A stretch of DNA of 64,000 nt from Candidatus Woesearchaeota archaeon (GCA_964430545.1 CAYSFG010000024.1:24534-88533); one strand, 5' to 3'; shown: positions 12,470-55,421, counted from the stretch's first letter. The notes: generated by a model not told the origin, from the letters alone. Numbers and translations: made by a program.

Positions 12470-12477
12470 TAAACAAT

Positions 12478-20117: not shown

Positions 20118-20678
20118 TTACTTCTTATATTTTTTCATTTCTTCAGTTATTCTTCCAAGTTCTTTTATATTTGAAGTTAATGGTTCTAATATTTTTTCAA
20201 ATACTTTTTCTAATGCTTTCATTTCTGATGTTATATTTCTTATTCCTTGGTCATAATCTCCCAATTTTCCAGCTATTGCATTTTGTAATCCTTCAAATCT
20301 TTGTTGTGTTCTTATTATTTCTTGTTTAATCCCAATTAAATCATTGTTTACTTTATCTTTCCATACAGCCAGATTTCCTACTCCTTGCGTCATTTCTTCA
20401 AATTTTTCTTTTACTACAGCTTCTACTATAGCTTGTATTCTTTCAGAATCTAATGTTTGTTGGGGATAATTTGTTCCTGCTTCTTGGTAAGCTGGCGCAT
20501 CTTGAGTATAATTCTGATTGTCAACATAATTTGTTTCAGGTAATTCTTCTGCAACTTCAACATTTCCTAAATCTGCTTCTGTAGGTAATTCAGCTCCTTC
20601 CGTAGGTTCTGGAACATCACTTAAAATTCCATCAACACCTGATTTTATATCTTGAAAACTATTTTGATTCTCTGCCAT
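20118..20678 (-). CDS. Acidic N-terminus / coiled-coil protein
   Basis: E/P-rich N-terminus, heptad C-terminus; overlaps the upstream gene. Confidence 0.8.
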   Translation of the reverse strand: MAENQNSFQDIKSGVDGILSDVPEPTEGAELPTEADLGNVEVAEELPETNYVDNQNYTQDAPAYQEAGTNYPQQTLDSERIQAIVEAVVKEKFEEMTQGVGNLAVWKDKVNNDLIGIKQEIIRTQQRFEGLQNAIAGKLGDYDQGIRNITSEMKALEKVFEKILEPLTSNIKELGRITEEMKKYKK

Positions 20679-21045
20679 GTTTTTCTACCTCTTTTATTTC
20701 ATTTTTTATTATATTTTTTACATCTTGTTCTGTTACAAATTTCATAGGATTCCATAAATTAATATACTTTTCTAAAAATTTCATATCTTCTTTTCTTGCG
20801 AATGAGTCTAGTTCTTTTAATAAATGTCTTAATGCTTCTTTTATTCTATAAATATTTACTTTAATTTCTTGTACATCTTCATTTACTAATTTTATTTCTG
20901 TTGTTGTTTTTTTATATTCTTCAATCATATTATTATTTATTAATAGCATTCTATCTCTTAATAAATTATATTTTCCTTCTATTTCTCTTATTCTTGTACT
21001 CATATCAAAATAGAAATTCTGTTCTTGTGACTGTTCTTCTGTCAT
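20659..21045 (-). CDS. Coiled-coil protein
   Basis: Heptads, ARKEDMKFLEKYINLWNP motif; divergent from the pilus ATPase. Confidence 0.8.
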   Translation of the reverse strand: MTEEQSQEQNFYFDMSTRIREIEGKYNLLRDRMLLINNNMIEEYKKTTTEIKLVNEDVQEIKVNIYRIKEALRHLLKELDSFARKEDMKFLEKYINLWNPMKFVTEQDVKNIIKNEIKEVEKHGRESK

Positions 21046-21122: not shown

Positions 21123-23414
21123 ATGGTGTTATTTAAAAAAGCTAAAAAGCCAGGTGAATATGAAATACAAAAAGAAGGTAGTGATGATGTTCTACATTTA
21201 AATTATGATTCTTATCCTAGAATTCCTTCAATAGAAGAAGATTCTGTTATATTTTCTTTAATCATTGAAAGACTTGCTTTAACTCCTAATGTTAGTCGTA
21301 TTGTTTTTCATCAAAAAAAGAAATATGAATATAGTTATTCTCAGACATTATTATTAGTAGAAATTGCAAGAATTTATAATCATTTTATAAAACAAAAAAG
21401 CATTTTAACTCAGGCAGCTTTAGAAGTTTTTGGACCATTACAAGATTCAATTTACAAAATTAAAAATTTACAAAATTTAATATTAAATTTATTAAAGTCA
21501 GATCCTGTTGGTGCTTTTGTTGAGACTAAAAGATTATTGAGAGAAGAGAGAATAAATATTTCTAAAAATAATTCTGAAGATTATAAAATAAAATTACAAC
21601 CTTACTTATCTGTTCTTACAGAAATTTATTCTTTATTAGAAAACACAAAACTTATACAAAATTCTAAAGATTATATAGATGGTTATATTGTCGGTCAGCG
21701 TGAAGTTTACAAATCTTTATTCAGGCCAACTATAACCCCAGATTTTATGTACACCAGATTATTAGCTACTCCGCCTTTAGATTCAGAAGCTGTGGATTCT
21801 TATTCTTTAGAAAAAAATACCCATGTTCAAATTTTTAATACGAGTGAAACTATCAAACCGCTATATCATTTAATCCCTCCAGAATTTCAGATTTCTGAAG
21901 ATAAATATGAACTTTTAGACCTTGCTAGAAAAGTTCTTTCTGAACATCAGCCTAAAGCTGAAGAATTTATAGATTCTGAAAAAATGCGTGAAACATTTTT
22001 TAACATTGGTAAAGATTTAATTACAGAATTATCTCAACATAAAAATATTTCTTTATCTTATCAAGAAGTCGAAGAACTTGCAAATATTCTTGTTCGTTAT
22101 ACTGTTGGTTTTGGTCTAGTAGAAACTTTATTACAGGATCCAGAAATACAAGATATTAGTATTAATAGTCCTGCTGGTTCTAGCCCTATTTTTATTGTTC
22201 ATGGTAAATATGATGAGTGTGTTTCAAACATAATAACTTCTATTGAAGATGTTGATAGTTGGGCTTCTAAGTTTAGGTTAATTTCTGGAAGACCTTTAGA
22301 TGAAGCCAATCCTGTTTTAGATACTGAACTTTTTATTCCAGGTGCTAGAGCAAGAGTTGCTATTATCCAAAAACCTTTGAGCCCAAATGGTCTTGCTTTT
22401 TCTATTAGAAGACATCGTGATAAACCGTGGACTTTACCTTTATTTATTAAAAATAATATGATGACTGATCTTGCTGCAGGGCTTTTAAGTTTTATTATAG
22501 AGGGAAACAGAACGTTACTTGTGGCTGGTACTCGTGGATCTGGAAAAACTTCAGTTTTGGGTTCAGTTCTCGTAGAAATTATGAGGAAATATAGAATAAT
22601 AACTATTGAAGACACTTTTGAACTTCCAAATGATGAATTAAGAAAATTAGGTTATAACATTCAGGGAATGAAAGTTCGTAGTGCTCTTGCTAAATCTGGT
22701 TCTGAATTAGCTGCTGATGAAGGTATTCGTACAAGTTTACGTATGGGTGATTCATCTTTAATCGTTGGAGAAGTTAGAAGTCTCGAAGCTTTAGCTATTT
22801 TTGAGGCCATGAGAACTGGTGCTTTGGCGAATACCGTTGCTGGTACAATTCATGGCGATTCTCCATACGGTGTTTTTGATAGGATAGTTAATGATCTAAA
22901 AGTTCCCAAAACAAGTTTTAAAGCTGTCGATATTATTATTGTTGCTAATCCTATTCGTTCTGCTGATGGATTGCATAGGGCAAGGAGAATTACACAAATA
23001 ACAGAAGTTCGTAAAGAATGGAATGATGATCCTTTAACTGAAGGGGGTTTTGTTGATTTAATGCGTTATGATAGTAAAACAGATTCCCTAGTCCCAACAG
23101 AAGAATTATTAAATGGAGATTCAGATATAATTAAAAGTATAGCTTCTAATGTAAAAGAGTGGGCTGGTTCTTGGGATTCGATTTGGGAAAATATTTTATT
23201 AAGAGCTAAAATTAAAAAGACTATTGTTGAATATTCTGAAGAATTAAATGATCCAGATTTATTAGAAGCTAAAACAGTTATACAATTAAACGACGAGTTT
23301 CATAGAATTAGTGAACGTGTTAAACAAAAAACTGGGTTTTTAAATAGTAAACAAATTTTTTTTGAATGGGAAGAATATTTCAAAAAATATATTAAATTAA
23401 GTTATAAACAATGA
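21123..23414 (+). CDS. Type II/IV secretion (pilus assembly) ATPase with long N-terminal extension
   Basis: GTRGSGKT Walker A, TIEDTFEL Asp box, IVGEVRS Walker B, GTIHG His box. Confidence 0.93.
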   Translation: MVLFKKAKKPGEYEIQKEGSDDVLHLNYDSYPRIPSIEEDSVIFSLIIERLALTPNVSRIVFHQKKKYEYSYSQTLLLVEIARIYNHFIKQKSILTQAALEVFGPLQDSIYKIKNLQNLILNLLKSDPVGAFVETKRLLREERINISKNNSEDYKIKLQPYLSVLTEIYSLLENTKLIQNSKDYIDGYIVGQREVYKSLFRPTITPDFMYTRLLATPPLDSEAVDSYSLEKNTHVQIFNTSETIKPLYHLIPPEFQISEDKYELLDLARKVLSEHQPKAEEFIDSEKMRETFFNIGKDLITELSQHKNISLSYQEVEELANILVRYTVGFGLVETLLQDPEIQDISINSPAGSSPIFIVHGKYDECVSNIITSIEDVDSWASKFRLISGRPLDEANPVLDTELFIPGARARVAIIQKPLSPNGLAFSIRRHRDKPWTLPLFIKNNMMTDLAAGLLSFIIEGNRTLLVAGTRGSGKTSVLGSVLVEIMRKYRIITIEDTFELPNDELRKLGYNIQGMKVRSALAKSGSELAADEGIRTSLRMGDSSLIVGEVRSLEALAIFEAMRTGALANTVAGTIHGDSPYGVFDRIVNDLKVPKTSFKAVDIIIVANPIRSADGLHRARRITQITEVRKEWNDDPLTEGGFVDLMRYDSKTDSLVPTEELLNGDSDIIKSIASNVKEWAGSWDSIWENILLRAKIKKTIVEYSEELNDPDLLEAKTVIQLNDEFHRISERVKQKTGFLNSKQIFFEWEEYFKKYIKLSYKQ

Positions 23415-23604: not shown

Positions 23605-25776
23605 ATGACAGAAGATAAAAAATTAAAGGATATATTATCAAAATATAGAAATAAGGTAGGTGAGCATATTGATTTAGACTCTGGTGATATTAGTTCTGAG
23701 GATATTAAAAAATTTTCTAGTGAATATATTAAATTTAAAGAAGAAGTTTTATCAGTTAAAAGGTCTAGTTATGAAAAATGGTGTAATGCTACTGAAAAAT
23801 TAATTTCTTTTAAGCCAGATAAGAATAAAGAAAAAATATTACAAGAAAGTATAGATGCTGCGCATATTGATATTACTCCTGCAGGTGCTGCTAGTTTTGC
23901 TGTTTTTATTGGGTTTATTATAATTTTATTTGGTATAATAGTTAGTTTAGTTTCATATTTAGTTTTCAATTCAATTCCTTTTTTTACTATTTCTTTAATT
24001 TTAATTTTTGGTCTAATTGCCGTTTTGAAATTTACAGATATTCCTATTTATATGGCTGCTCGTTGGCGTTTAAAAGCAAGTAATCAAATGGTTATTTGTA
24101 TTTTATATGTTGTTATTTATATGCGTCATACTTCTAATCTAGAACATGCTATTAAATTTGCAGCTGAACATATTGATGCTCCTTTGTCTTTTGATCTTAG
24201 AAAAATATTTTGGGATATAGAAACTGAAAAATTTTCTACAATTAAAGAATCTTTAGATAATTATTTAGAAACTTGGCGTCATCATAATTTAGAATTTGTT
24301 ACTGCTTTTCATCTTATTGAATCTTCTTTGTTTGAACCTACTGAATCTAGAAGAATTGATTTATTAGAAAAAGGTTTGAATGTTATTCTTGATGGTACTT
24401 ATGAAAAAATGCTTCATTATGCCCAGGATCTTAAGGGCCCGATAACTACATTACATATGTTAGGTGTTATTTTACCAATTTTAGGTTTAGTTATATTTCC
24501 TTTAATCGGTTCTTTCCTTAATGGTCTTGTTAAGTGGTATCATCTCGCTCTACTTTATAATATTATACTTCCTATTTTAGTATTTTATTTAGGTATTAAT
24601 ATTTTATCTAAGAGGCCTACAGGTTATGGTGATTCTAAGGTTGCTAAAAATGTTTACAAACAGTCTTTTAATCCATTTTTTATTTGTTTTTTTATTGCTG
24701 TTTTATTTTTAGTAATTGGTTTATTCCCATTATTATTTCAGTTGACTTTACCTGTTGCAAAAGAAAGTCTTGGTTGTGTTTCTGGTGATATTGATATTGG
24801 TAGTTTTGGTTGTTTTTTTGGTTATGTTCCTTTTGGTAAAGAATATTTTGGTCCTTTTGGTATTGGTGCATTATTTTTAGGTTTTTTTATTCCAGCAGGT
24901 CTTGCTATTGCTATGAGTGTTTATTTTAAATTAAAAACTAAAAATTTTATTGACATTAGAAATGATACAAAAAATCTTGAATCTGAATTTGCTTCTGCTC
25001 TTTTTCAATTAGGTAATAGGGTTGGTGATGGTATTCCTACAGAATTAGCTTTTAGCAAGGTTTCTCAAACTTTAGAAGAAACTCCGTCTGGTAATTTTTT
25101 TAGAATTGTTGATACAAATATTAGACAATTAGGCATGGGGCTTAAAGAAGCTATTTTTAATGAAAAAAACGGGGCTATACTTTCTTATCCTTCTTCTTTG
25201 ATTGAAAGTTCTATGGAAGTTCTTTTGGAGAGTTCAAGAAAAGGTCCTTCTATTGTTTCTCAGTCTATGATTAGTATTGCTAATTATGTTGATAAGATTC
25301 ATCAGGTTTCTGAAAGATTAAAAGATTTATTAGCAGAAGTAATTTCTTCTATGAAATCCCAGATTAATTTTTTAACACCTGTAATTGCCGGGATTGTTGT
25401 TGGTATTTCTGTAATGATTGTTAATATTATTGTTGTATTAAACACTAGCATTTCTAAAATTGCTTCTCAAAATTCAGGTGATCTCGGTACTGGGGGTATA
25501 GAAGGATTAAGTGGTTTGTTTAGTATTAATGGAATAATTCCAGGTTATTTTTTTCAATTAGTAGTTGGCCTTTATGTTGTTGAGATTACTTATGTTTTAA
25601 CAGTATTACAAAATGGAATTGAAAATGGTAATGATAAACTTAATGAGCAATATCTTCTTTCTAAAAATATTATGAGGAGTTTTTTATTATATGCTGTAAT
25701 TGCCTTAATAGTCACATTATTATTTACTGGTCTTGCTAGTGTTGTATTGCAAGGTTCTAATATTGGTCTTGCTTAA
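23605..25776 (+). CDS. Type IV pilus/Tad membrane platform protein (FlaJ/TadC-like, double domain)
   Basis: Two T2SSF-like halves with multiple TMs, following the ATPase. Confidence 0.85.
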   Translation: MTEDKKLKDILSKYRNKVGEHIDLDSGDISSEDIKKFSSEYIKFKEEVLSVKRSSYEKWCNATEKLISFKPDKNKEKILQESIDAAHIDITPAGAASFAVFIGFIIILFGIIVSLVSYLVFNSIPFFTISLILIFGLIAVLKFTDIPIYMAARWRLKASNQMVICILYVVIYMRHTSNLEHAIKFAAEHIDAPLSFDLRKIFWDIETEKFSTIKESLDNYLETWRHHNLEFVTAFHLIESSLFEPTESRRIDLLEKGLNVILDGTYEKMLHYAQDLKGPITTLHMLGVILPILGLVIFPLIGSFLNGLVKWYHLALLYNIILPILVFYLGINILSKRPTGYGDSKVAKNVYKQSFNPFFICFFIAVLFLVIGLFPLLFQLTLPVAKESLGCVSGDIDIGSFGCFFGYVPFGKEYFGPFGIGALFLGFFIPAGLAIAMSVYFKLKTKNFIDIRNDTKNLESEFASALFQLGNRVGDGIPTELAFSKVSQTLEETPSGNFFRIVDTNIRQLGMGLKEAIFNEKNGAILSYPSSLIESSMEVLLESSRKGPSIVSQSMISIANYVDKIHQVSERLKDLLAEVISSMKSQINFLTPVIAGIVVGISVMIVNIIVVLNTSISKIASQNSGDLGTGGIEGLSGLFSINGIIPGYFFQLVVGLYVVEITYVLTVLQNGIENGNDKLNEQYLLSKNIMRSFLLYAVIALIVTLLFTGLASVVLQGSNIGLA

Positions 25777-25812: not shown

Positions 25813-25938
25813 ATGAAAAAGAAAGGGTGGTCAGATTATGCTATGAATGTTATGATTATTATTATTTCTATACTTATTTTTTTAGCAGTTATTTGGTATA
25901 TATTTTTTAAAAAATTAGAGGTGTTTAATTTATTATGA
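25813..25938 (+). CDS. Small pilin-like protein, 41 aa (below ORF-track cutoff)
   Basis: MKKKG/WSDYAMNVMIIIISILIFLAVIWYIFFKKLEVFNLL*; ATGA overlap with the next gene. Confidence 0.75.
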   Translation: MKKKGWSDYAMNVMIIIISILIFLAVIWYIFFKKLEVFNLL

Positions 25939-27176
25939 ATAAAAAAGGTTTGAGAAATGATGTTTTGATTCTTTTAATTCTTTCCCTAGTTATATTAATG
26001 ATTATTGGCAGTTTTGCTTATGCTTTTAATCTGTTTGCTTCTAGAGAATCTAATGTCGAAATTGTCCAGGCTTGGGTTGGTCAAAAAGTAAATTCAAAAT
26101 TAACTCTTGGGGGTAAGTGGCCTCCTGTTAGGGAGTTAGATAAACCTTTAATTATAAAAAATCCTAAAGATTTAAGATATAATGGAAATGAACCTCCTAA
26201 ATTTTACAGAGAAATTGCAGATTCTATGTATGATTGTTGGAGAGCTTTTGATAAAGGTGAAAGTGATTTTATTGGTTCTGTTTCTGGTATTACCGATTAT
26301 GTAAAGAATGTTAAGAAAGAAATTTTTTGTTATCCTTGCAGAGCAATTTCTTTTTCAAATGAAATAAAAAATGATGTGCCTGAAGTTCAAGGTTTTCTTA
26401 GATACTTAAATGAATATAAACCAATTGAAGGTGAAGATAAACTTACTTATTTGCAATACTTAGCTAATGATGATACTTATACTTTAAGTAATGAAGATTT
26501 AGAAAATGATAAATTTGCTACAGACAAAGATCTTTATGTAATGTTATTTGCTGCTTCTGGAAGAGCATGGAATCAGATTGCGTGGGAATTATTAGGTGTT
26601 CAGTCTGGTGAACTTCAGGAAGCTCAAGGTTATTCTCCTAAAAATATTAATGAAGGAAGTGAAGGACAGATTACATCAACAAATACAAATTCTGGAGTAG
26701 GTAATCTTGCAGCTTCAGGTGTTACAGCTGGTGTTACTGCTTCTCGTAAGATTATTGCTAATAAAATAACTTCTAAACTTGCTGAAGAAGGTGTTGTTGG
26801 TTTAAGTGAAACTGCTGTTAATTTTATTCAAGGTGAAGGTCAGGCTGTTGAATTTGGTGCTTCCAGATTAACTGCTAAATCAGTTACAAAAGCCGCAGGC
26901 AGAACAATTGCTAAAGGTTTTGCTAAAACCTTAGGTGCTAAGTTCATACCTTATATAGGGTGGAGTCTTGCTTTGTATGAGTCAGGTACTGGTGTTTATC
27001 GTTTAGTTTTCAATCCTAAACCTTTTGTTGCTACTGTTATGATTGTTGAGCCAAAAGATTTTTTAACTAAATGCAATGGCCCAAATATAGAACAAATTAA
27101 TGAAAATATTCAATCAGATGTTGAAAAATTTAAAGAAGCCCAGAGTGAAACATTCACACCTGGAAGAAAATTTTAA
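25935..27176 (+). CDS. Large class III signal-peptide protein with Gly/Ala-rich amphipathic C-terminal region
   Basis: MNKKG/LRNDVLILLILSLVIL...; C-terminal AGRTIAKGFAKTLGAKFIPYIGWSLALY. Confidence 0.8.
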   Translation: MNKKGLRNDVLILLILSLVILMIIGSFAYAFNLFASRESNVEIVQAWVGQKVNSKLTLGGKWPPVRELDKPLIIKNPKDLRYNGNEPPKFYREIADSMYDCWRAFDKGESDFIGSVSGITDYVKNVKKEIFCYPCRAISFSNEIKNDVPEVQGFLRYLNEYKPIEGEDKLTYLQYLANDDTYTLSNEDLENDKFATDKDLYVMLFAASGRAWNQIAWELLGVQSGELQEAQGYSPKNINEGSEGQITSTNTNSGVGNLAASGVTAGVTASRKIIANKITSKLAEEGVVGLSETAVNFIQGEGQAVEFGASRLTAKSVTKAAGRTIAKGFAKTLGAKFIPYIGWSLALYESGTGVYRLVFNPKPFVATVMIVEPKDFLTKCNGPNIEQINENIQSDVEKFKEAQSETFTPGRKF

Positions 27177-27264: not shown

Positions 27265-27423
27265 ATGAAAAATAAAAAAGGAGACTTTACATTTAATATA
27301 GTTATAAAATTAGTATTAGCATTAATATTATTAATTTTTTTATTATTATTTATATTTTCATTAAAAGACAGTTCGACTAATATTTTTAACAAGATTGTTC
27401 AAGCTTTGAGGTTTGGTAATTAA
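27265..27423 (+). CDS. Small pilin-like protein, 52 aa (below ORF-track cutoff)
   Basis: MKNKKG/DFTFNIVIKLVLALILLIFLLLFIFSLKDSSTNIFNKIVQALRFGN*. Confidence 0.8.
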   Translation: MKNKKGDFTFNIVIKLVLALILLIFLLLFIFSLKDSSTNIFNKIVQALRFGN

Positions 27424-27425: not shown

Positions 27426-28100
27426 ATGGAAATGAGTTTTAAAGTTATAACATGGGTTGTTTCAATTATTGTTTTTATTATTGTTCTTTATGGTTTTTAT
27501 ACTACAACAGAAAATCCCATTAAGTCATTATTAAGTTTTGGAAATGAGTCAACTTCTAGTGGTGATAGCATACATCAATTAAATGATGTGGATAAGATTT
27601 ATTTTTATTCTAGTTTTGTTTCAGATGTTAAGAGATGTTCTGATTCTAAAGATAATGAATGTTATTGTCCTTTGACTAATACTATTATTCCTAAAACTTA
27701 TTCAATTTTATTAAAGAATGTTGCTGGTCGTGCAGCTTTATTATTATATAAAGATGCTTTAATTTCATCATGCACTATTCAAAATTTAGAACCAGTTTCT
27801 CAGAATAGTTTTCCTTTTAGTTTTTATATAGAAAATATTCGTGGTAAACCTTCATTAGATAATTATGAGGAAAATGGTTATACTTTCAATAAATTAAAAT
27901 TAAATGATTTTACTATTGCTACTGATATTTTATTTCAAAATAATGAAATATGTTCAGCAAAAGATATAAACGGAAGAAATTATATTGATTTTAAGAATGG
28001 AATTTTATATAAATTTAATAATAATATTATTGGAATGACAAGAACCCAGCCTAATCTAAGAAGATGTTCTTTTGATTTAGTTACAGAAACGTCAGAATAA
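27426..28100 (+). CDS. Pilin-like protein with no basic leader peptide
   Basis: MEMSFKVITWVVSIIVFIIVLYGF; in-frame TAA at 27417-27419 excludes an upstream leader; Cys-rich globular domain. Confidence 0.75.
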   Translation: MEMSFKVITWVVSIIVFIIVLYGFYTTTENPIKSLLSFGNESTSSGDSIHQLNDVDKIYFYSSFVSDVKRCSDSKDNECYCPLTNTIIPKTYSILLKNVAGRAALLLYKDALISSCTIQNLEPVSQNSFPFSFYIENIRGKPSLDNYEENGYTFNKLKLNDFTIATDILFQNNEICSAKDINGRNYIDFKNGILYKFNNNIIGMTRTQPNLRRCSFDLVTETSE

Positions 28101-28182
28101 TTTAGTGAAATATTAAATTTTAGAGAGTTACCAAAAGCTTTAAATATAAACTTCATCATAAAATATTATTCAGAGGTGTTTG

Positions 28183-28575
28183 ATGTTTAATAAAAAGGGT
28201 ATGGAATTACCACAAGGTGTTGTTATTGTCGCATTGATTCTAATAGTTTTAGTTATAATTATTTTAGTATTTGTTGTAGGAGGATTTGGTACTGTTGGTC
28301 AAAAATTAAAAGATATATTTTCTAGCCAGACAAGCGGACAAAATATTGATTTAGCAGTTAGGACTTGTCAAAATCTTTGTGATTCAGCTAAAACTGTCAC
28401 ATCTGATCTTCAGCGTACTTCAGGTTATTGCAGACAAACATTTATGATAGATGAAGATAATAATGCTAAAACTGCATTAAAAAAAGCAACATGTAGTGCT
28501 ACTAATTATAATTCTGTACTAGCTGTTAATTCTGAAACATCTATTGGCGTTGAATGTTCTGAAGTCCAATGTTAG
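28183..28575 (+). CDS. Type IV pilin (candidate major pilin)
   Basis: MFNKKG/MELPQGVVIVALILIVLVIIILVFVVGGFG; six Cys. Confidence 0.85.
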   Translation: MFNKKGMELPQGVVIVALILIVLVIIILVFVVGGFGTVGQKLKDIFSSQTSGQNIDLAVRTCQNLCDSAKTVTSDLQRTSGYCRQTFMIDEDNNAKTALKKATCSATNYNSVLAVNSETSIGVECSEVQC

Positions 28576-28580
28576 TAAAA

Positions 28581-28763
28581 ATGAATAAAAAAGCAGTTAA
28601 TCTTTCTTTAGAGACAGTGGTTGTTATGATTATTATTTTAATTGTAGTAGGTTTAATAATTTATTTTGCTATAACTTATCTTCCTAATTTATTTGATTCA
28701 TTCAGACAACAAGGTGTTACTGCAACAAATCTTGTTAAAGATTCAAGTATTCCTAAACCATAA
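28581..28763 (+). CDS. Small type IV pilin
   Basis: MNKKA/VNLSLETVVVMIIILIVVGLIIYF. Confidence 0.85.
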   Translation: MNKKAVNLSLETVVVMIIILIVVGLIIYFAITYLPNLFDSFRQQGVTATNLVKDSSIPKP

Positions 28764-28795: not shown

Positions 28796-30844
28796 ATGTT
28801 TAAAAGAGGTGCATTAAGTACAATTCAGGATTTGTTTATTGGTTTAGTTTTTGCCGCTTTAGTTATCTTTATATTTGTTTTTATATCTAATAATTTTTTA
28901 GAGTTGTTTAATCAGGATAAAGGTTCATGCGATAACAAACTTCAATGGAATGGTGTTAAAGATTTAGTAAAAAATTTAGATAAAGGTGAAGTTAAGTCTA
29001 TGATCTTTATTAATGAAAAATGCAACCTTGTTAGTTTCTCTTTTAGTCTTGGTTTACAAAATCATCCTATACAACCAGATTTTGAAGTTGCTAAAGATCC
29101 GCAATTATGTATGTGTAAAGTTGATGGTGAAAATTGTAAACATTATAAATGTTATAAACTTACTGATGTAACAGCAATAGTTGATGAAAATGATAAACCT
29201 TTTACAACATCTGAACTTCAACCTTATACTTATCTTACATTTACAAAATTAAATAATAAATTAGTAGTCCAAACTATAGGTAATTTTAAATCTCCAGAAC
29301 CTATTACTGGGGCATTAGATGTTAAAGAATTTAATGAAAATAATATTTTAAACAAATTAACAATATTATTCAATACAAGGTCTATTAAATCTTTTATTCC
29401 TATTATTAATATAAAATCAGACTCTTTATTTATTCCAGAAGGTATCCCTAAAGATCATAATCTTCCTTACTTATTTGATATTGATTTAGGTTTACCTTCA
29501 AAAGAAAGTTTAGGCAATTTACAATATCTTTCTAATCACGAGTCTATTGATACTAACTTTGTTGTTCAAGCAGATATAGAATTATCAATTCCAAAAAATA
29601 TTTTAGAAAATATTGATTCAAGTAATATTGCTTTATATTATAAAAATTTTGATTCATGGAAATCTTCCCGTTTATCTTGTGAAACTCTAGAAAATTTTTA
29701 TTTATGTAAATCAAATATTAAAGGATTTTCTAAGGAATTTGCAATTAGTGTTCCTTCTGTTCGTGTTTCTTTTATTTCAAATTCAGAATTAGAAGTCCAA
29801 TTAACTCCATTAATTAATGGTTTATCTTTTAAGTATAATGTTGATCCATTATTAGTTAAAGCTATTATTCAAAAAGAAAGTGCTTGGAATGAAAAAGCAA
29901 TTTCTAAAACTTGTGGTGCTGGTGGTTTGATGCAATTGATGCCCGGTACTGCTCAAGAATTAGGTTTACTAACTTTTGAAAATTCTAATATTATAAAATG
30001 TGATCCTGATTATGCTTCTAGACTTTTTTCATTTGTTAATTCCAACACAGATTCAGCAAAATTAGATAATAGATTTAATTTTGAATTAAATATTGATGCG
30101 GGTATTAGATATATTTCAAAAATAACTAATCAGTTGAAATTAAATAATATTGAACCTTCAGTTGAAAATATTGCTGCTTCTTATAATGCTGGGCCAAATA
30201 GAATAATAAAAGATAGCGGTGTTCCTAATATTCCAGAAACTAAAGATTATGTTGTTGCTGTTATTCAGAATTATAATAAATTAGTTTCATCATCTTATGA
30301 TTTAACTGGTGATAAAGTTTGGCCTATTAATAACCCTATAATAACTTCTTGTTATGGTTCAAGAGTTTCTCCATTAACTGGTGATCTTGATAAGTTAGAT
30401 TGGCATGATGGTATTGATTTTGGTATTCCAATAGGTACTCCAGTTTATAGTGTTGCTGATGGTGTTGTTATTAGTGTTCATAATTGTGATCCTGATTGTA
30501 CTAAGGGTGGTGGTAATAGTTTATTAATTAAACATAATGACGGATTTACTGGTTATCTCCATTTATCTGAAATATTAGTTGAGAATAATGCTAAAGTTAC
30601 AAAAGGTCAAGTTATTGCTAAGAGCGGTAACACTGGCAGATCTACTGGCCCTCATCTTCATTTTAATGTCTATATAAATCCAGATTTTAGTACTGATGTT
30701 GGTAAACCTAATTATGAGAGAGATCCTTTAAATTATCTTCCTAAATTGTCAGAATATAAAGTAAAGGCAGGTGCTAGAAATTGTTTAGAATCTCCATCAT
30801 TTATTGCATTAAAACAACAAGATGTTAATATTGTTATGGTATAA
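28796..30844 (+). CDS. Pilin-like protein fused to SLT lytic transglycosylase and M23 peptidase domains
   Basis: MFKRG/ALST + TM; PGF-pre-PGF-like segment (KGFSKEFAIS); SLT motifs AIIQKES, GLMQLMPGT, AASYNAGP, ETKDYV; M23 motifs HDGID, YLHL, GPHLHF. Confidence 0.9.
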   Translation: MFKRGALSTIQDLFIGLVFAALVIFIFVFISNNFLELFNQDKGSCDNKLQWNGVKDLVKNLDKGEVKSMIFINEKCNLVSFSFSLGLQNHPIQPDFEVAKDPQLCMCKVDGENCKHYKCYKLTDVTAIVDENDKPFTTSELQPYTYLTFTKLNNKLVVQTIGNFKSPEPITGALDVKEFNENNILNKLTILFNTRSIKSFIPIINIKSDSLFIPEGIPKDHNLPYLFDIDLGLPSKESLGNLQYLSNHESIDTNFVVQADIELSIPKNILENIDSSNIALYYKNFDSWKSSRLSCETLENFYLCKSNIKGFSKEFAISVPSVRVSFISNSELEVQLTPLINGLSFKYNVDPLLVKAIIQKESAWNEKAISKTCGAGGLMQLMPGTAQELGLLTFENSNIIKCDPDYASRLFSFVNSNTDSAKLDNRFNFELNIDAGIRYISKITNQLKLNNIEPSVENIAASYNAGPNRIIKDSGVPNIPETKDYVVAVIQNYNKLVSSSYDLTGDKVWPINNPIITSCYGSRVSPLTGDLDKLDWHDGIDFGIPIGTPVYSVADGVVISVHNCDPDCTKGGGNSLLIKHNDGFTGYLHLSEILVENNAKVTKGQVIAKSGNTGRSTGPHLHFNVYINPDFSTDVGKPNYERDPLNYLPKLSEYKVKAGARNCLESPSFIALKQQDVNIVMV

Positions 30845-30847: not shown

Positions 30848-31219
30848 ATGAAAAAAAAAGGTATGTCAACAACAATGACAGCATGGATTATTGATTTAGT
30901 TATACTTTTATTTATTACAGGTTCATTTTTTGGGGTTATTATAAAAATTAAAGATAATACTAATCATGACCTTAAATTATCTTCTTTAGAATATTCTTTT
31001 TCTAGAATTTTTTCTCAAATTCCTTATAAAAATAAAGAATTATATTTTATTTATAATTATAATCCAAATATAACCTTATCTTTTTCAGAACCTTGTATTA
31101 TAAAAGCAAAACTTAAAGATGAAAAGTTATCAAATATAGCACAGTATAATTGTGTTGTTTCTGATAGAATTATTTCAGAACAGTTTTTAGAAAATAAAAT
31201 AGTGATGGTTTCAAAATGA
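30848..31219 (+). CDS. Minor pilin-like protein
   Basis: MKKKG/MSTTMTAWIIDLVILLFITG. Confidence 0.8.
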   Translation: MKKKGMSTTMTAWIIDLVILLFITGSFFGVIIKIKDNTNHDLKLSSLEYSFSRIFSQIPYKNKELYFIYNYNPNITLSFSEPCIIKAKLKDEKLSNIAQYNCVVSDRIISEQFLENKIVMVSK

Positions 31220-31698
31220 ATAAAAAAGCTTCTTTGCCTACTGAGATGTTGAAATGGTTAGGTAATATAACATTAGTTATGGTTGTTGTTATATTTATTT
31301 TTATGGTTGCCGTTTCTTTTTTAAATGAAAAATTTGATACAAGAGATCTTGAAGTTTATACATTGTCAAGATCTTTGCTTTATTCTGAGAATTGTCTTGC
31401 CTTGAGTGATGAGTTTAAAGTTAGTGTCGGGGTTATAGACATTGAAAAGTTGACTCCAGAAAAATTAAGTTCTTGTTATTCTAAAGAAGATTTTGGTTAT
31501 ACTGTTAAATTATCTGATATTGATAATAATGAAATTGCTTTTGTTAATCCAAAGTTTAATATTAATTATAATATTCCAATATGCGCAGGAGTTAAGTTTT
31601 ATAAATGTTCAAATAATAAATATTATGTTTTATATAAAAAAGATAATAAAATTTTACCAGGTATATTAGATTTAGAGGTGATTACTATTGTACAATAA
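31216..31698 (+). CDS. Minor pilin-like protein
   Basis: MNKKA/SLPTEMLKWLGNITLVMVVVIFIFMV. Confidence 0.8.
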   Translation: MNKKASLPTEMLKWLGNITLVMVVVIFIFMVAVSFLNEKFDTRDLEVYTLSRSLLYSENCLALSDEFKVSVGVIDIEKLTPEKLSSCYSKEDFGYTVKLSDIDNNEIAFVNPKFNINYNIPICAGVKFYKCSNNKYYVLYKKDNKILPGILDLEVITIVQ

Positions 31699-32158
31699 AA
31701 AAGGAGATTTTGGTTTTCCATTATACTTTGTTCCTAGTTTAGTTTTATTAATCTTATTTTTATTATTTTTCTCAATTTTATTTTTTGTTTTAGATGTTGC
31801 TAAATCTAAGGATAATGTGGTATCTAATGAACTATTTACAGATTCTTTGACTTTAAGGAATTTATTATTAACAGAAGAGAACAATGAAAACATTGCTGAT
31901 ATAATATCCGATTTACCTGATGATTCTGCTTTGATAAAACTTAAATCAAGAATTCCAAATATTTTAAAAGTTATTCCTAAACCTCATTCTGTTAGTTCAT
32001 GGAATTTTATTATCTCAAATGATCAAGAAATTTTGCATTTAGGTGAAGATTATCCTTTTTCTAAAGTTTATTATAACCAAACTTTATTATTACCAATTAA
32101 ATCAAAAAATTCCGTTGTTGTGTCATTGTACTTAAATTGTGGGGGCTGCAATGAATAA
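31688..32158 (+). CDS. Minor pilin-like protein
   Basis: (M)YNKKG/DFGFPLYFVPSLVLLILFLLFF. Confidence 0.78.
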   Translation: MYNKKGDFGFPLYFVPSLVLLILFLLFFSILFFVLDVAKSKDNVVSNELFTDSLTLRNLLLTEENNENIADIISDLPDDSALIKLKSRIPNILKVIPKPHSVSSWNFIISNDQEILHLGEDYPFSKVYYNQTLLLPIKSKNSVVVSLYLNCGGCNE

Positions 32159-33005
32159 GAAAGCAGTTTTTTTACCTTTATTTGTAATTGTTACATTAGT
32201 TATTTTAGTTCTATTATCCTATACTATTACCAAAGTTAAATTATCAAGACAAGATAAAGTTGGTATAAAAAGTCTTTCTATCATGAAAGCTTATGATGAA
32301 GGTGAAAAAGATTTATTGTATTTAGAACAATCTCTTAAGTTATCTAAAACATTAGTTATGAAAGAACTTTATGATAATGGAGGTTATCTTTCTTCTAATT
32401 CTTGTCAAAAAATTAAAGACAATGGTGATATGTATGTTTTGATAGATGATTCTTGTAATAATTTTGATATTGATAATAATTTTTTAATTGGTCTTAATAA
32501 TGAATTTAGTTCTTATATCGTTAATTTTAGGAGTACTTATGAAGAGTTTAATCCTAAAAATTCTTTTAGTTCTAGTGCTTTTAATTTTCTAGGTTTAGTT
32601 TCTGATACTATTGTTTCTGAAAGAGGCGGTATTTTAAAAACTTATTCTGAGAATTCAGTTAAAAATTCTAAGATTATTGGTTTTGATAAAGATAAGTCTA
32701 TTGTTACATTATCAGATTTAAATTTTAAGATAGAAAATTCTTTGCAGTCTTCTTATATTATTCATCCTAAGATATATTTAGGAACAAATGATTTAATTAA
32801 TTTTAATAAAGTCTATCAGTTTATTGCTTTAAATTGTATTAAGAAAGAACCTAATGAATGTGTTTCTAAATTAAATTCGGAATTTAAAGCTTTAACTTCT
32901 GTAAATAGAAAGATTATAATAGTTAAAATTCCAGTTAATGATCATATTCTAAAGTTTGCAATAGATATTGATTCTAAACTTCCTAATGTTGGGATAAACA
33001 TATAG
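32151..33005 (+). CDS. Minor pilin-like protein
   Basis: MNKKA/VFLPLFVIVTLVILVLLSY; ATG 32151 preferred over GTG 32139. Confidence 0.78.
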   Translation: MNKKAVFLPLFVIVTLVILVLLSYTITKVKLSRQDKVGIKSLSIMKAYDEGEKDLLYLEQSLKLSKTLVMKELYDNGGYLSSNSCQKIKDNGDMYVLIDDSCNNFDIDNNFLIGLNNEFSSYIVNFRSTYEEFNPKNSFSSSAFNFLGLVSDTIVSERGGILKTYSENSVKNSKIIGFDKDKSIVTLSDLNFKIENSLQSSYIIHPKIYLGTNDLINFNKVYQFIALNCIKKEPNECVSKLNSEFKALTSVNRKIIIVKIPVNDHILKFAIDIDSKLPNVGINI

Positions 33006-33154: not shown

Positions 33155-34102
33155 ATGATTCTCGGCTATGAAACAATATTAAATAAAATTATTGAAGTTA
33201 CACAACTTCCTAAAGTAGATATTGAATCTAAAATTAATCAGAAACTTAAGGATTTACAAGATTTGATTTCTAAAGAAGGCGCAGCCCATATTGTTGCTAA
33301 TGAATTAAAAGTTAAATTATTTGATTTGTCACTGCCTAAAACTTTTAAGATTAAAGAAATTAAAGCTGGTTTAAATGCAATTAATTTAGTTTGTAGAATT
33401 ATTAATATTAATGATGTTAGAACTTTTAAGCGCAATAATCGTGATTCTAGAGTGGGTTCTATGCTAGTGGGTGATGAGACTGGTTCTTTGAAGATTGTTG
33501 TATGGGATGAAAAAATTATTGATTCTTTAAAAGATTTGAAAGAAGGTTCAGTGATTAAAGTTTCAAATGCTTATTCTAAAGAAAATAATAATTATCTGGA
33601 ATTACATCTTGGTAATCGTGCTATTATTGAAAATTCTAATGAAACTATTGGGGAGATTCGTTTAGGTATTATTTCTAAAAGAAAACATATTAAAGATCTT
33701 AAAGAAAATGATTTTGTTGAGGTTTTTGGGACAATTGTACAAATGTTTGATCCTAGATTTTATAATGCTTGTCCTGTTTGTAGTAAAAAAATTTTAATGC
33801 AAGAAGATTCTTTTGTATGCCAAGAGCATGGCAAAGTTCCAGTTAAACAGGTCCCAATTTTAAATATTGTTTTTGACGATGGTACAGGTAATATAAGATC
33901 TGTTTTATTTAGGGAAAATGCTGAAAAAATTATAGGTAAAGATTATTCTAATTTAGATGCTGTAAGAAAAGATGTTTTAGGTAAGCAGTTATTATTAAAG
34001 GGTAAAGTTAATAAAAACGAACTTTATTCTAGAATGGAGTTTATGGTTAATTCTGTTGAACCAGTTAATCCTGAGATTTTAATTAAAGAATTAGAAAACT
34101 AA
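33155..34102 (+). CDS. rpa: Replication protein A (OB folds plus zinc ribbon)
   Basis: GDETGSLKIVVW, NAYSKE, CPVC...CQEH, DDGTGNIR. Confidence 0.88.
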   Translation: MILGYETILNKIIEVTQLPKVDIESKINQKLKDLQDLISKEGAAHIVANELKVKLFDLSLPKTFKIKEIKAGLNAINLVCRIININDVRTFKRNNRDSRVGSMLVGDETGSLKIVVWDEKIIDSLKDLKEGSVIKVSNAYSKENNNYLELHLGNRAIIENSNETIGEIRLGIISKRKHIKDLKENDFVEVFGTIVQMFDPRFYNACPVCSKKILMQEDSFVCQEHGKVPVKQVPILNIVFDDGTGNIRSVLFRENAEKIIGKDYSNLDAVRKDVLGKQLLLKGKVNKNELYSRMEFMVNSVEPVNPEILIKELEN

Positions 34103-34135: not shown

Positions 34136-34690
34136 ATGAACATAGGATTATGGATTTTAATAAGTATAGTTGTTTTAATAGTTTTATATTTAATATTTAC
34201 TTTTAATAGATTAATTGTTTTAAAAAATAGAATTAATAATGCATGGGCTCAGATTGATGTTCAGCTTAAAAGAAGATTTGATTTAATTCCTAACTTAGTT
34301 GAAACTGTTAAAGGTTACGCTAAACATGAAAAATCTACTTTCACAGAATTAACTAAAGCAAGGGCTATGATGGCTAATGCAACTTCAATGTCTGATAAAT
34401 CTAAAGCAGATAATATGATCACAGGTGCTTTAAAATCTTTATTTGCAGTTACAGAGAATTATCCCGAATTAAAAGCTAATGAAAATTTCATGCAATTACA
34501 AGAAGAATTATCTGGTACTGAAAGCAAGATTGCTTATTCAAGACAATTTTATAATGATTCAGTTTTATCTTTTAATAATTTAATTCATACTTTTCCACCT
34601 AATATTATTGCTAATATGTTTGGTTTTAAAGAAAAAGAATTCTTTGAAACTAAAGGCGTTGAGAGAGAAGCTGTTAAAGTTCAGTTTTAA
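34136..34690 (+). CDS. lemA: LemA family protein
   Basis: [43 protein letters not shown]. Confidence 0.96.
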
Positions 34691-34799
34691 TCTATATTTT
34701 TAATTAACTAAGTATTTATAATTTTTTTTTGTTAGTAGTGTTTTTTAGGAAATAAGTCATTTTAGTAAAGTTTATATTAATTTATTAATTTACATATTC

Positions 34800-35684
34800 A
34801 TGTCAGAAAAAACTAATTTTTACAATGAAATATCTAAGAATAGATTTAAGACAATTTTATTAATATTAATTTTTTCAATTTTAATTCTTTTCTTAGGTTA
34901 TATTTTAGGGATAATGTATACAGGCAATCCATTTATAGGTTTAATCGTAGCAGTTATTATTTCATTAATCTTAATTTCCATAAGTTATTTTTCTGGTGAT
35001 TCTATTGTTTTAAATGTTACAGGTGCTAAAGAAGCAACTAAACCACAATATACTTATTTGATTAATACAATTGAAGGCTTGGCTATTGCTGCAGGTTTGC
35101 CAAAACCTAAAGTGTGGGTTATTAATGATCAAAATCCTAATGCTTTTGCTACTGGCAGAAATCCTGAAAAATCTCATGTTGCTGTTACAACAGGTTTATT
35201 AGATTTAATGAATCGTGAAGAGTTAGAAGGAGTAATTGCTCATGAAATGTCTCATATTAAAAATTTTGATATTAGATATATGATGATTGTTGCTGTAATG
35301 GTAGGAATGGCAGTTATTCTTAGTGATTTTATTGTCAGAAGTTTTTTATGGGGTGGTGATCGTGATCGTAAAATTCATCCTGCTTTTATTGTTTTAGGAA
35401 TTGTATTTGCTATTTTAACTCCTGTGATTGCAGAATTAATTAGATTGGCGATTTCAAGAAAGCGTGAATATTTAGCAGATGCTTCTGGTGCTTTGTTTAC
35501 TAGAAATCCCCAAGGTTTAGCTTCTGCCTTAAAAAAATTAAAAAATTATAATGGCCCAAGTATGAAATCTGCTTCTAAAGCAACTGCTCATTTATTTATT
35601 TCAAATCCTTTTAAAAATGCTTCTCAATTATTTAGTACACATCCGCCATTAAATGAAAGAATTAAGAAATTAGAATCTATGTAA
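34800..35684 (+). CDS. htpX: Zinc metalloprotease HtpX (M48)
   Basis: PNAFATG, AHEMSH, SRKREYLAD, FSTHPP. Confidence 0.95.
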   Translation: MSEKTNFYNEISKNRFKTILLILIFSILILFLGYILGIMYTGNPFIGLIVAVIISLILISISYFSGDSIVLNVTGAKEATKPQYTYLINTIEGLAIAAGLPKPKVWVINDQNPNAFATGRNPEKSHVAVTTGLLDLMNREELEGVIAHEMSHIKNFDIRYMMIVAVMVGMAVILSDFIVRSFLWGGDRDRKIHPAFIVLGIVFAILTPVIAELIRLAISRKREYLADASGALFTRNPQGLASALKKLKNYNGPSMKSASKATAHLFISNPFKNASQLFSTHPPLNERIKKLESM

Positions 35685-35758
35685 TTTTTTTTTTGTTAGA
35701 ATTTCCATGTAATAATTCATAAATATTGTTAGATAAAAGAAAAGTATAAATATCAGTT

Positions 35759-35770
35759 ATACTATAGTAT
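35759..35770. promoter_or_regulatory. Palindromic operator of the TA pair
   Basis: Perfect palindrome ATACTATAGTAT between TATA box and start codon. Confidence 0.55.
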
Positions 35771-35775
35771 TACTT

Positions 35776-49608: not shown

Positions 49609-50457
49609 TTAAAATATAACATTACCAAATATTATTGTTATTATAAATCCTATCAAGAACCCAGGCACAAAAGCAATTCCTTCTTTTATTATTACATTTC
49701 TTATCTTATATTTTTTTAATATTTTTATATGTTCTGAGTTTATTCCAAATATTTTTTTTGATATTAATATTTTTTTATTAAACATTATATCTTGTGCCAG
49801 CCAATCTCCTTCAGTAAGTTTATTTATATTAACTTTTTTATACATGCAACTATTTTCTACTGTTTTTAGCATATTTAATATTAAAGATAATAAAATTAAT
49901 AACAACCCTAATAAAAATCCAACATATTTAATAAAACCTTCAAATATTATTAAACTTATTATTATTATTAAAATACCTAAAAAAATTCCAATAAATAACA
50001 TTGTATGGTTTTGTTTCTGCCATTCTGTTTTAAATTTTTCATAATTTTTTACAGCTAGAATTATTGCATAAATTATCCCATATATACTTCCAAATAAAAA
50101 TATATTTAATATTAATAATAGTAAGAATGGTAAGTTTATGTTAGGATTAAATATAATTATTTCATAATTTCCAAATAATGCACCCAATCCCATTAATAAT
50201 TTGCAGTCTCCTCCACCCCATTGTTTTGTATAATACATTATATTAGCAAAGATTATTGCTATTATTAGTCCTATTATTCCATAAAATATTATTTGATAAT
50301 CTTTGTAAATTAATGAGTATAATAATCTTATTCCAATTCCAGAAGTTATCAAAGAATATGTTAACCAATTTGGTACTTCTTTTGTTCTTAAATCAATGAT
50401 TGTTGCAAATATTAATGCAATTATAGCTATTATTAATAATAAAATCCAGAGTATCAT
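49609..50457 (-). CDS. A24 prepilin peptidase (PibD/FlaK-like)
   Basis: IDLRTKEVPN and GGGDCKL catalytic Asp motifs, multi-TM, AFVPGF. Confidence 0.9.
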   Translation of the reverse strand: MILWILLLIIAIIALIFATIIDLRTKEVPNWLTYSLITSGIGIRLLYSLIYKDYQIIFYGIIGLIIAIIFANIMYYTKQWGGGDCKLLMGLGALFGNYEIIIFNPNINLPFLLLLILNIFLFGSIYGIIYAIILAVKNYEKFKTEWQKQNHTMLFIGIFLGILIIIISLIIFEGFIKYVGFLLGLLLILLSLILNMLKTVENSCMYKKVNINKLTEGDWLAQDIMFNKKILISKKIFGINSEHIKILKKYKIRNVIIKEGIAFVPGFLIGFIITIIFGNVIF

Positions 50458-52989: not shown

Positions 52990-53002
52990 AAGAGGCGATT
53001 AA

Positions 53003-55420: not shown

Positions 55421-55421
55421 A

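Follow-up and report, generated by a model that had tools for sequence, protein, structure and literature searches.

A pilin-like carrier with interchangeable, predicted murein hydrolases in a filament operon of Woesearchaeota

Introduction

The modular type IV pilins of bacteria combine a class III signal and a hydrophobic helix, which together act as a carrier, with a C-terminal functional module. They are large, are encoded among minor pilin genes, are presumed to reside at the filament tip and evolve by module swapping (PMC8179133). Raynaud et al. 2021 described PilB with a vWA module and PilC with a lectin module in Streptococcus sanguinis and catalogued 264 architectures in a survey that covered bacteria, not archaea (PMC8179133). 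These pilins carry the N-methylation motif IPR012902, and the highlighted modules are adhesive (vWA, lectins) apart from one peptidase family (PMC8179133). Here, we analyse a protein of comparable design, encoded in a 64,000-nucleotide stretch of DNA from a Candidatus Woesearchaeota archaeon (GCA_964430545.1 CAYSFG010000024.1:24534-88533), which is referred to as the window. This protein, the target, differs from the bacterial modular pilins in that it is archaeal, that its 320-aa two-subdomain carrier has no recognisable pilin head and that its cargo is of the murein-degrading kind.

Murein hydrolases are also part of Gram-positive conjugative type IV secretion systems (T4SS), examples being PrgK of pCF10 (a transmembrane (TM) helix followed by LytM/M23, SLT and CHAP domains), TraG of pIP501 and the VirB1 family. 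Like the target, PrgK-type proteins have one N-terminal TM helix in front of SLT and M23-type domains, and their genes lie in the operon of an envelope-spanning, ATPase-driven machine. However, they belong to VirB4/VirD4 conjugation systems and cut the wall of the producer itself, whereas the target is encoded in a type IV filament (TFF) operon, with a T2SSE ATPase and an A24 peptidase and without T4SS genes, its producer belongs to the archaea, which are not known to make murein, and its hydrolase is dispensable in orthologous operons. Murein hydrolase effectors with two activities, for example a contact-dependent type VI secretion system (T6SS) effector of A. baumannii with lytic transglycosylase and endopeptidase (PMC11796386), and phage tail lysins, for example the M23 tail protein Gp16 (PDB 9m7n), also join glycan and peptide cutting on one polypeptide, which acts on a foreign wall from the tip of a nanomachine, as is proposed for the target. 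In both cases a contractile or tail machine is used, not a type IV filament, and homology is confined to the catalytic domains.

In archaea, murein transglycosylase proteins of Woesearchaeota and Pacearchaeota have been read as implying bacterial hosts (PMC8204110, PMC9723730), and Vigneron et al. 2022 reported GH23 genes in ‘vampiristic’ Woesearchaeota, namely in metagenome-assembled genomes from Lake A and in AR20 (PMC9723730). These reports share with the present case the phyla, the SLT/GH23 domain and the bacterial-wall inference. However, they deal either with CAZy counts or with proteins of very large size (up to ~3,000 aa), and they make no mention of M23, amidase or M15 cargo, of a class III signal, of a carrier common to several proteins or of a pilus operon (PMC8204110, PMC9723730). 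In a survey of 3,706 archaeal genomes, Strock et al. 2025 showed that modular peptidoglycan hydrolases are encoded in ~5% of them, prominently in Nanoarchaeota, and Woldo and Danwoldo are secreted peptidoglycan hydrolases of Halogranum salarium (PMC12352652). These enzymes are likewise archaeal M23 or other murein hydrolases aimed at bacteria, with a patchy distribution and shuffled domains. They are defined by a catalytic plus a peptidoglycan-binding domain, carry Sec/Tat signals, the sole kinds taken into account in that survey, and act as diffusible bacteriocin-like toxins (PMC12352652), whereas the target has no known wall-binding domain, carries a class-III-type signal and belongs to a filament operon. 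A 2026 preprint on the diversity of archaeal TFF (10.64898/2026.04.22.720090) makes no mention of hydrolases or peptidoglycan, and we did not find a pilin-like carrier of murein hydrolases in a pilus operon with swappable cargo described in the literature. An initial annotation of the window, made from the sequence, had regarded the fusion of both activities to a pilin as undescribed. As far as our literature searches show, this holds for the carrier and its operon, but Woesearchaeota and Pacearchaeota SLT proteins and archaeal peptidoglycan hydrolases had already been published. The finding combines known kinds of components and is not a categorically new system.

Results

A conserved eight-cysteine module precedes the catalytic domains

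The target open reading frame (ORF) was found in the ORF listing of the window at 28796..30844 (+), exactly where the initial annotation had placed it, and codes for a protein of 682 aa and 75 kDa. Its first 322 residues form a conserved module that was previously unannotated and is undescribed in sequence and structure (the N-module). The family was found by an exhaustive phmmer search of 1.84 billion representative proteins, of which 150 matches were listed. Among these, P0017 (711 aa) is the sole full-length homologue and carries SLT and M23 domains like the target, with 37% identity over aa 3-682 in BLASTP and 40% in phmmer. About 30 further proteins among the matches listed match only the N-terminal region of the target. 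Local hidden Markov models (HMMs), with which 31 members were classified, split the module into subdomain A (aa 40-165; 28913..29290 (+)) and subdomain B (aa 166-322; 29291..29761 (+)); the HMM of subdomain A matched 31 proteins. Subdomain A occurs without B in P0022, P0024, P0038, P0050, P0120 and the protein of locus L005.

The initial annotation had noted a cysteine-rich domain. Indeed, the target contains 14 Cys, eight of which are invariant in the N-module alignment (C45, C76, C105, C107, C114, C119, C295 and C304); six belong to subdomain A and two to subdomain B. Invariant cysteines in this number fit an extracellular protein with two disulfide-rich subdomains, and we count them in favour of a pilin-like carrier. 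With the N-module alignment as input, AlphaFold2 (AF2) gave a model with a mean predicted local distance difference test score (pLDDT) of 82.3. The model consists of a helix (7-38), a short break, a helix (48-63) lying on a beta-sheet (66-161) and a beta-sandwich (185-320). Subdomain A is alpha/beta, with pLDDT ~85-92, and subdomain B is the beta-sandwich with strands at 185-320. We also count in favour of a pilin-like carrier that the model has a long N-terminal helix with globular domains behind it. With catalytic-domain homologues alone, AF2 produced no usable model of aa 39-328. Even with the threshold relaxed to E<=10, neither aa 43-179 nor aa 180-339 gave a match in Pfam. A PGF-pre-PGF-like spacer, which had been proposed for this part of the protein, was not borne out by this search of aa 43-339, and we rejected this identity for subdomain B, whose predicted beta-sandwich has no significant PDB match. 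A Foldseek search of the N-module model against BFVD gave one marginal match, to a 175-aa protein (E 3e-4, root mean square deviation 9.7), which we judged uninterpretable.

The choice of search tool affected the detection of this family. With the full target, a word-indexed protein search returned single-domain matches only, and with the first 339 aa it returned nothing, the parent protein included. Use of the N-module alignment gave three matches, compared to ~30 by exhaustive phmmer. Because phmmer did find the family, we read the word-indexed negatives as insensitivity of the tool; such negatives are unreliable for this AT-rich, fast-evolving family.

Both catalytic domains of the target are intact

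The module is followed by an SLT/GH23 domain (PF01464) at aa 341-475 (29816..30220 (+)), which was detected in Pfam with E 6.4e-20 and 71.3 bits, compared to a gathering cutoff of 21.3. It contains the motifs QKES (359-362, with the catalytic E361), GLMQ (377-380) and YNAG (463-466). In a sequence alignment E361 is nearly invariant, and in a phmmer search against the PDB aa 353-388 of the target align with residues 470-504 of Slt70. A Peptidase_M23 domain (PF01551) follows at aa 537-628 (30404..30679 (+)), with E 4.1e-26 and 91.4 bits compared to a cutoff of 28.7. All of its zinc and catalytic residues are kept (H537, D541, H589, H620 and H622, corresponding to HxxxD, the middle His and HxH), and they lie in the motifs HDGID (537-541), YLHLS (587-591) and HLHF (620-623). 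The phmmer matches of this domain in the PDB include ShyA (6ue4, 3.6e-21) and zoocin A (1.5e-19), with which the motifs align residue by residue. NCBIfam concurs, with matches to the catalytic parts of MepM, ShyA, DipM, Slt70, MltC and MltF. Consistent with the initial annotation, which had named both domains and their motifs and had asked for a domain search, the order SLT then M23 was thus recovered by Pfam, NCBIfam and PDB alignments. Both enzyme domains are intact in their catalytic residues, and cleavage of murein is predicted.

The C-terminal tail (aa 629-682 plus stop codon; 30680..30844 (+)) is conserved with the M23 clade of the target (...KPNYERDPLNYLP...C..SP...), and phmmer matches reach ~aa 676-680 in P0017, P0022, P0024, P0034, P0035, P0036, P0038, P0042 and P0043. 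In the M23 domain of most relatives, the last zinc-ligand motif reads H-L-D (PHLDF) rather than the canonical H-x-H, which the target has as PHLHF. The relatives with H-L-D are P0017, P0022, P0024, P0034, P0035 and P0038, which could represent a clade-specific variant with Asp in place of His as a metal ligand.

Different, predicted murein-directed enzymes are attached to the same module

To describe the C-terminal cargo of the relatives, cargo families were called by Pfam, and all calls lie above the curated cutoffs unless marked otherwise. The combination SLT plus M23 is limited to the target and P0017. SLT is the cargo of P0018, P0019, P0021, P0052 and the short form P0050. In P0026, SLT scores just under the cutoff, and P0025 apparently carries a degenerate SLT, as it has no Pfam match and inspection by eye shows the E-S motif replaced. 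P0020 combines SLT with Amidase_2, and Amidase_2 is found in P0023, P0031 and P0146. Subdomain A is joined to M23 in P0022, P0024 and P0038, to Glucosaminidase and M23 in P0034, to M23 and a weak, below-cutoff Phage_lysozyme2 match in P0035, and to Peptidase_M15_4 in P0120; P0033 has a weak Peptidase_M15 match below cutoff. Ten representatives of 318-342 aa consist of the N-module alone and carry no enzyme.

As judged by these family assignments, the cargo varies, yet it is always predicted to be murein-directed, with five unrelated enzyme families on one carrier. Among our computational arguments, this presence of five murein-specific families on one carrier speaks most strongly for murein as the physiological substrate and for the N-module as a delivery scaffold. 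It strengthens the earlier proposal that bacterial murein is the target of the enzymes. Pseudomurein was also considered as a substrate and judged unlikely, since the cargo families are murein-specific and no pseudomurein-binding or Pei-type domain was found; the sole PMBR match is a sub-threshold one of 13 bits in a 723-aa membrane protein of the operon described below.

Two further proteins, P0047 (838 aa) and P0060 (843 aa), have a second, unrelated N-terminal region with a class-III-like start (MNRMKG|SAAIMT... and MKRVHKKG|DAGE..., respectively), followed by SLT and M23, which Pfam confirmed for P0047. These proteins may stem from a separate fusion of murein hydrolases to a pilin-like part, in a different lineage.

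The module gene has a constant position in a conserved filament operon

Related loci were retrieved with a seven-sequence alignment, and gene order was compared by tblastn and by tables of called genes. In the window, two divergent genes are followed by an ATPase, a 723-aa protein, six genes of small or medium size, then the target, four genes and an RPA gene. The operon comprises 13-14 genes altogether, ~11 of which are pilin-like. This collinear order is kept in L003 (Woesearchaeota RIFCSPHIGHO2_02_FULL_29_10), L006 (GCA_053531355.1), L007/L008, L009 and L005/L011-13 (Woesearchaeota FULL_28_36 and three metagenome contigs), and in the short contigs L004, L010 and L014 as far as they reach. 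Identity to the proteins of the window operon is 57-78% for the ATPase and the membrane protein and 22-47% for the pilin-like genes.

Wherever the flanks of a related Woesearchaeota locus are visible, the N-module gene is found at the same ordinal slot, where its product differs in cargo. The protein in this slot is the 682-aa SLT+M23 protein in the window, a 531-aa protein with SLT in L003, a P0026-type protein with an SLT-like domain in L004, a 437-aa protein with subdomain A and an unknown C-terminus in L005/L011, and an enzyme-free protein of 330-342 aa in L006, L007 and L009. Three of the seven distinct assessable loci in this sample, which is unbiased with respect to cargo, have a hydrolase in the slot. 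The existence of enzyme-free carriers (10 representatives, three loci) indicates that the module has a conserved role of its own and that the enzymes are add-ons. From these comparisons, we conclude that the carrier is a core component of the operon and that the enzymes are accessory.

The operon is preceded by two small, divergently transcribed genes for proteins of 186 aa and 128 aa (20118..21045 (-)). Orthologues with 41-67% identity were found by tblastn in the same place in L006 and L007, and both proteins have only weak coiled-coil-type Pfam matches. The assembly ATPase of the type IV filament (763 aa; 21123..23414 (+)) matches PF00437 T2SSE with E 1.4e-18, and its best PDB relatives are archaeal GspE (2oap, 3e-31), CpaF (1e-26) and FlaI (4e-19). 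Its Walker A motif GSGKT is located at ~474, and the protein is 66-78% identical in L003, L006, L007 and L009. Directly 3' of the ATPase gene in all loci lies the gene of a polytopic membrane protein with ~9 TM helices (723 aa; 23605..25776 (+)), which shows 57-67% identity and is a putative platform protein by position only.

The next genes code for a 41-aa class-III-like mini-protein (MKKKG|W...; 25813..25938 (+)), with 42-aa and 39-aa genes at this slot in L006 and L007, respectively, and for a 413-aa class-III-like protein (MNKKG|L...; 25935..27176 (+)) with a GAGGTG ribosome-binding site upstream and orthologues in L003, L006, L007 and L009. They are followed by a 52-aa class-III-like mini-protein (MKNKKG|D...; 27265..27423 (+); orthologue in L003) and a 224-aa protein (27426..28100 (+)) that has an N-terminal TM helix without the K-[GA] motif and has orthologues in L003, L006, L007 and L009. 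The next gene (28180..28575 (+)) has a strong GAGGTG site and codes for a class-III-like protein of 131 aa that contains 6 Cys and is a candidate major subunit; in L003, L006, L007, L009, L010 and L014, its orthologues lie directly upstream of the N-module gene. Between this gene and the target, a 64-aa class-III-like mini-protein is encoded (MNKKA|V...; 28569..28763 (+); orthologues in L003, L006, L009, L010 and L014).

Downstream of the target, four genes code for further class-III-like proteins. The products are 123 aa (MKKKG|M...; 30848..31219 (+); orthologues in L003, L004, L006 and L009), 160 aa (MNKKA|S...; 31216..31698 (+); orthologues in every locus that has flank, L005 and L011 among them), 156 aa (TTG start, MYNKKG|D..., GAGGTG site; 31688..32158 (+); orthologues in L003, L004, L006 and L009) and ~284 aa in length (MNKKA|V..., likely start ATG 32151; 32139..33005 (+); orthologues in L003, L004, L006, L007 and L009). 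A GAGGTG site is present before four array neighbours of the target and absent before the target itself, consistent with a subunit of low abundance.

With regard to membership in the TFF superfamily, a secretion-superfamily ATPase is present in the locus, as is a class III signal peptidase in the window. Profile scans revealed no VirB4/VirD4-type conjugation or T4SS domains in the operon or the window, and in Pfam and NCBIfam searches of the operon no DNA-binding or nuclease module was detected.

Directly downstream of the array and on the same strand lies an RPA-type gene (OB fold plus Rep_fac-A_C) at 33155-34102 (+). It is found likewise in L003 (13852-14805), L005 (4694-5656), L006 (13264-14211), L009 (11262-12206) and L011 (~11910-12848), and the genes past RPA differ between loci. 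Co-transcription, possibly with a link to DNA uptake, and inherited synteny are the options for this arrangement. In L003, L005 and L006, a YdjM membrane-hydrolase gene follows directly after RPA. In the window, LemA, an M48/HtpX-like peptidase and a VapBC-like pair (34136-36440) lie between RPA and YdjM (36458-36931).

Class III signals cluster around the target

By definition, a class III signal has G, A or S at position -1 and a charge at position -2, and is processed ahead of the hydrophobic H-domain; experimentally characterised sites include RA|LS, KG|QV and KA|IS (PMC4371748). The target begins with MFKRG|ALST, with Arg at -2 and Gly at -1, followed by its single N-terminal hydrophobic helix (~aa 6-38, with the H-domain from aa 10; aa 1-38 correspond to 28796..28909 (+)); in the AF2 model, the helix spans 6/7-38. 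This agrees, as far as the motif is concerned, with the class III signal and TM helix noted in the initial annotation. A signal of this type was found in 31 of 31 family members. To assess whether such signals cluster in the operon, the 120 ATG-ORFs of the window that are 40 aa or longer were scored. Nine of the 15 ATG-ORFs in 25.8-33.0 kb were positive, as was the TTG-start gene at 31688, compared to two of 105 elsewhere, which gives 11 of 120 in the window and a hypergeometric P = 2.4e-8. The target is thus located within an array, as had been proposed, and the array consists of small class-III-like genes.

A prepilin (class III signal) peptidase of 282 aa is encoded at 49609..50457 (-), 19 kb from the target. 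It was identified by PF01478 Peptidase_A24 (E 3.6e-15, 56.7 bits compared to a cutoff of 26.5), and the contexts of both catalytic Asp residues are there (IIDLR with D22, GGGDCKL with D84).

Assembly, origin and other genes of the window

The same 7.7-kb stretch is present in two independent Logan assemblies of separate runs (ERR4904393 and ERR3478687) with 99.95-99.96% identity and without gaps. GC content at third codon positions (GC3) is even along the target, with 0.09-0.11 in the N-module, SLT and M23 segments. The agreement of two assemblies and the uniform GC3 show that the target is neither a chimera nor a recent import.

The window has a GC content of 22-30%. Profile searches identified Orc1/Cdc6, LonB, ArgRS, RadA, RPA, GINS51, eIF2-alpha, L44e, PAC2 and CDP-archaeol synthase, and these archaeal genes indicate that the window is archaeal. 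Every named related locus is from Candidatus Woesearchaeota, which likewise agrees with the DPANN origin assumed in the initial annotation. Across the whole 64-kb window, no tRNA genes or Rfam families were detected at threshold.

Some other genes of the window may relate to the cell surface. Near the operon, 36991-38709 (+) codes for a 572-aa putative surface protein with four FG-GAP repeats and ASPIC/UnbV, and 38812-41664 (+) for a 950-aa putative surface protein with a weak right-handed beta-helix match; both are candidate adhesins. Just downstream of the A24 peptidase gene, 51799-57645 (+) contains five unknown genes, the first of which codes for a 396-aa protein with a class-III-like N-terminus (MIKNKKG ADGG...). 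In this block, which might form a second locus for a surface structure, a lipobox-like signal (LVSC) is encoded in 54494-55420, and 55422-56369 has a weak CARDB match. A serine recombinase (Resolvase plus Recombinase) is encoded at 12478-13245 (+), amid the mostly unannotatable ORFs of 8.2-16.5 kb, a region that may be an integrated mobile element. The VapBC-like pair mentioned above consists of 35776-36048 and a PIN gene at 36027-36440, and a second PIN gene lies at 57976-58359.

Discussion

The architecture of the target and its operon context are established with very high confidence. We consider it probable that the target is a modular, pilin-like subunit of a TFF operon specific to Woesearchaeota, which presents swappable murein hydrolases to bacterial walls. 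According to this proposal, the protein would be inserted by Sec and then cleaved after Gly5 by the A24 peptidase encoded 19 kb downstream. The hydrophobic helix would dock the target into the filament as a low-copy minor subunit, and the tip would be its likely location, given its size and the analogy with bacterial modular pilins (PMC8179133). Contact with a bacterium would be made via the filament or via the tight cell-cell interface that it creates. At the contact point, SLT would cut the glycan strands and M23 the peptide cross-links of the sacculus. Such a local opening would allow a wall-less, biosynthetically poor archaeon to reach the bacterial membrane or the contents of the cell. 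Taken together, the predicted features point to contact-dependent attack on, or attachment to, bacteria. A more far-reaching version is possible, but we propose it only tentatively: the lineage-specific filament might have a tip subunit that serves as a universal adaptor for interchangeable murein effectors of the lytic transglycosylase, M23, amidase, glucosaminidase and M15 kinds, so that the whole would constitute a polymorphic pilus-tip effector system that drills through bacterial walls.

Several observations weigh against the assignment as a filament subunit. Neither the target nor the array genes match a pilin profile of Pfam or NCBIfam at E<=0.1. Between the predicted cleavage site and the H-domain, there is a polar or mixed gap of four residues in the target and of up to eight in some relatives, while canonical pilins have a tighter spacing of these elements. 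In a comparison with the pilin lollipop fold, the helix 7-38, the break and the helix 48-63 on a sheet (pLDDT 82) gave no significant PDB match, as Foldseek of the N-module model against the PDB found nothing at E<=0.001 (best E 0.02). The 723-aa membrane protein showed no T2SSF or other match in Pfam or NCBIfam, no match in the PDB when a four-sequence profile was used, and no internal repeat when its N-terminal and C-terminal halves were compared by hhalign; if it is the platform protein, it would be unrecognisably divergent or novel. In addition, cargo-bearing members are over-represented among the 150 phmmer matches listed, because the query contained SLT and M23. In view of the missing profile match, the uninformative fold search and a putative platform protein without likeness to T2SSF, we use the term ‘pilin-like’ and assign the target to no described pilin family. 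The description as ‘pilus-tethered’ in the initial annotation can accordingly be inferred only from signal motif, operon position and A24 peptidase, with no profile or fold match to known pilins.

The main rival to a filament subunit is a membrane-anchored ectoenzyme or assembly factor, in which the helix is an uncleaved, or a cleaved but non-polymerising, signal-anchor. The N-module and its hydrolases would then sit on the archaeal surface by the filament base and act only at tight contacts. The missing pilin-like profile or fold, the polar spacer between the K/R-G/A site and the H-domain and the large size of the protein would all fit such an anchor, and archaeal bindosome subunits and sugar-binding proteins carry class III signals although they are not filament subunits (PMC4371748). 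On the other hand, the neighbouring small pilin-like genes share the signal motif, and the N-module gene has a fixed slot among them in every locus. Moreover, an A24 peptidase is present, and the modular pilins of bacteria, which reach a similar size, do belong to the filament as subunits (PMC8179133). On balance, we regard a mere anchor as unlikely, though worth serious consideration. Slightly less probable still, in our view, is that the filament is of the competence or uptake type and serves scavenging or DNA uptake, with fratricin-like lysis of nearby bacteria that would supply an auxotrophic DPANN cell with DNA, nucleotides, amino sugars and amino acids. This explanation competes on purpose, not on anatomy, and is compatible with the architecture proposed above. 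Peptidoglycan has been proposed as an amino-acid source for Pacearchaeota (PMC11537232), ‘vampiristic’ Woesearchaeota have been proposed (PMC9723730), and the RPA-type gene, which codes for a single-stranded-DNA-binding protein and lies immediately behind the array, in the same orientation, wherever a locus has flank, is a weak hint at such a purpose. However, RPA is a housekeeping replication protein, and its adjacency may be synteny inherited among fairly close relatives; the operon is also devoid of a DNA-binding or nuclease module in Pfam and NCBIfam, and the anchoring of the enzymes argues for contact dependence over diffusible lysis.

Remodelling of the producer's own wall is the usual role of SLT and M23 domains on bacterial trans-envelope machines. 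The hydrolases would in that case open a passage for the filament, as do VirB1, PrgK, FlgJ and LytF, the last being linked to pilus extrusion (PMC12424861). For the target this seems very improbable. The orthologous carriers in L006, L007 and L009 lack a hydrolase, which argues that the enzymes are not needed for assembly, and the swapping among five enzyme families looks like diversification of effectors rather than housekeeping. Furthermore, no murein-synthesis gene was found among the ~60 ORFs of the window, and archaea are not known to make murein. That SLT and M23 are typically bacterial might also suggest an artefact, in which the contig is chimeric or an archaeal pilin gene has been joined to contaminating bacterial sequence; the initial annotation had named a mis-assembly junction within the gene as a concern. 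We rejected this explanation, whose probability we consider negligible: two separate sequencing runs yielded the 7.7-kb region at 99.95%, P0017 has the same architecture at 37-40% identity, GC3 is uniformly ~0.10, and further fusion variants exist on the N-module. Thus, presentation of murein hydrolases to bacterial walls by a pilin-like subunit is the explanation that we prefer.

The finding bears on the hosts and lifestyle of DPANN archaea, above all of Woesearchaeota. To our knowledge, all cultivated DPANN archaea grow on other archaea. Earlier speculation about bacterial partners rested on isolated SLT domains, whereas a concrete and testable apparatus can now be named: a conserved filament operon of 13-14 genes with a defined carrier subunit, on which murein enzymes are swapped on and off between related genomes. 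The principle of the modular pilin would thereby apply to archaea as well as bacteria, and to wall-degrading enzymes as well as adhesion modules. The N-module with its eight invariant Cys provides a new search handle, and from the type of cargo (D,D-endopeptidase, amidase, L-Ala-D-Glu or D-Ala-D-Ala peptidase, or glycosidase), clues to the partner's wall chemistry might be gained. In addition, the enzymes are candidates for contact-dependent antibacterials of archaeal origin. If the operon indeed encodes a pilus-tip effector system, it would be the first molecular machine for episymbiosis or predation of an archaeon on a bacterium. The N-module together with its cargo type would then be a sequence marker that predicts which DPANN lineages target bacteria and which wall chemistry they attack.

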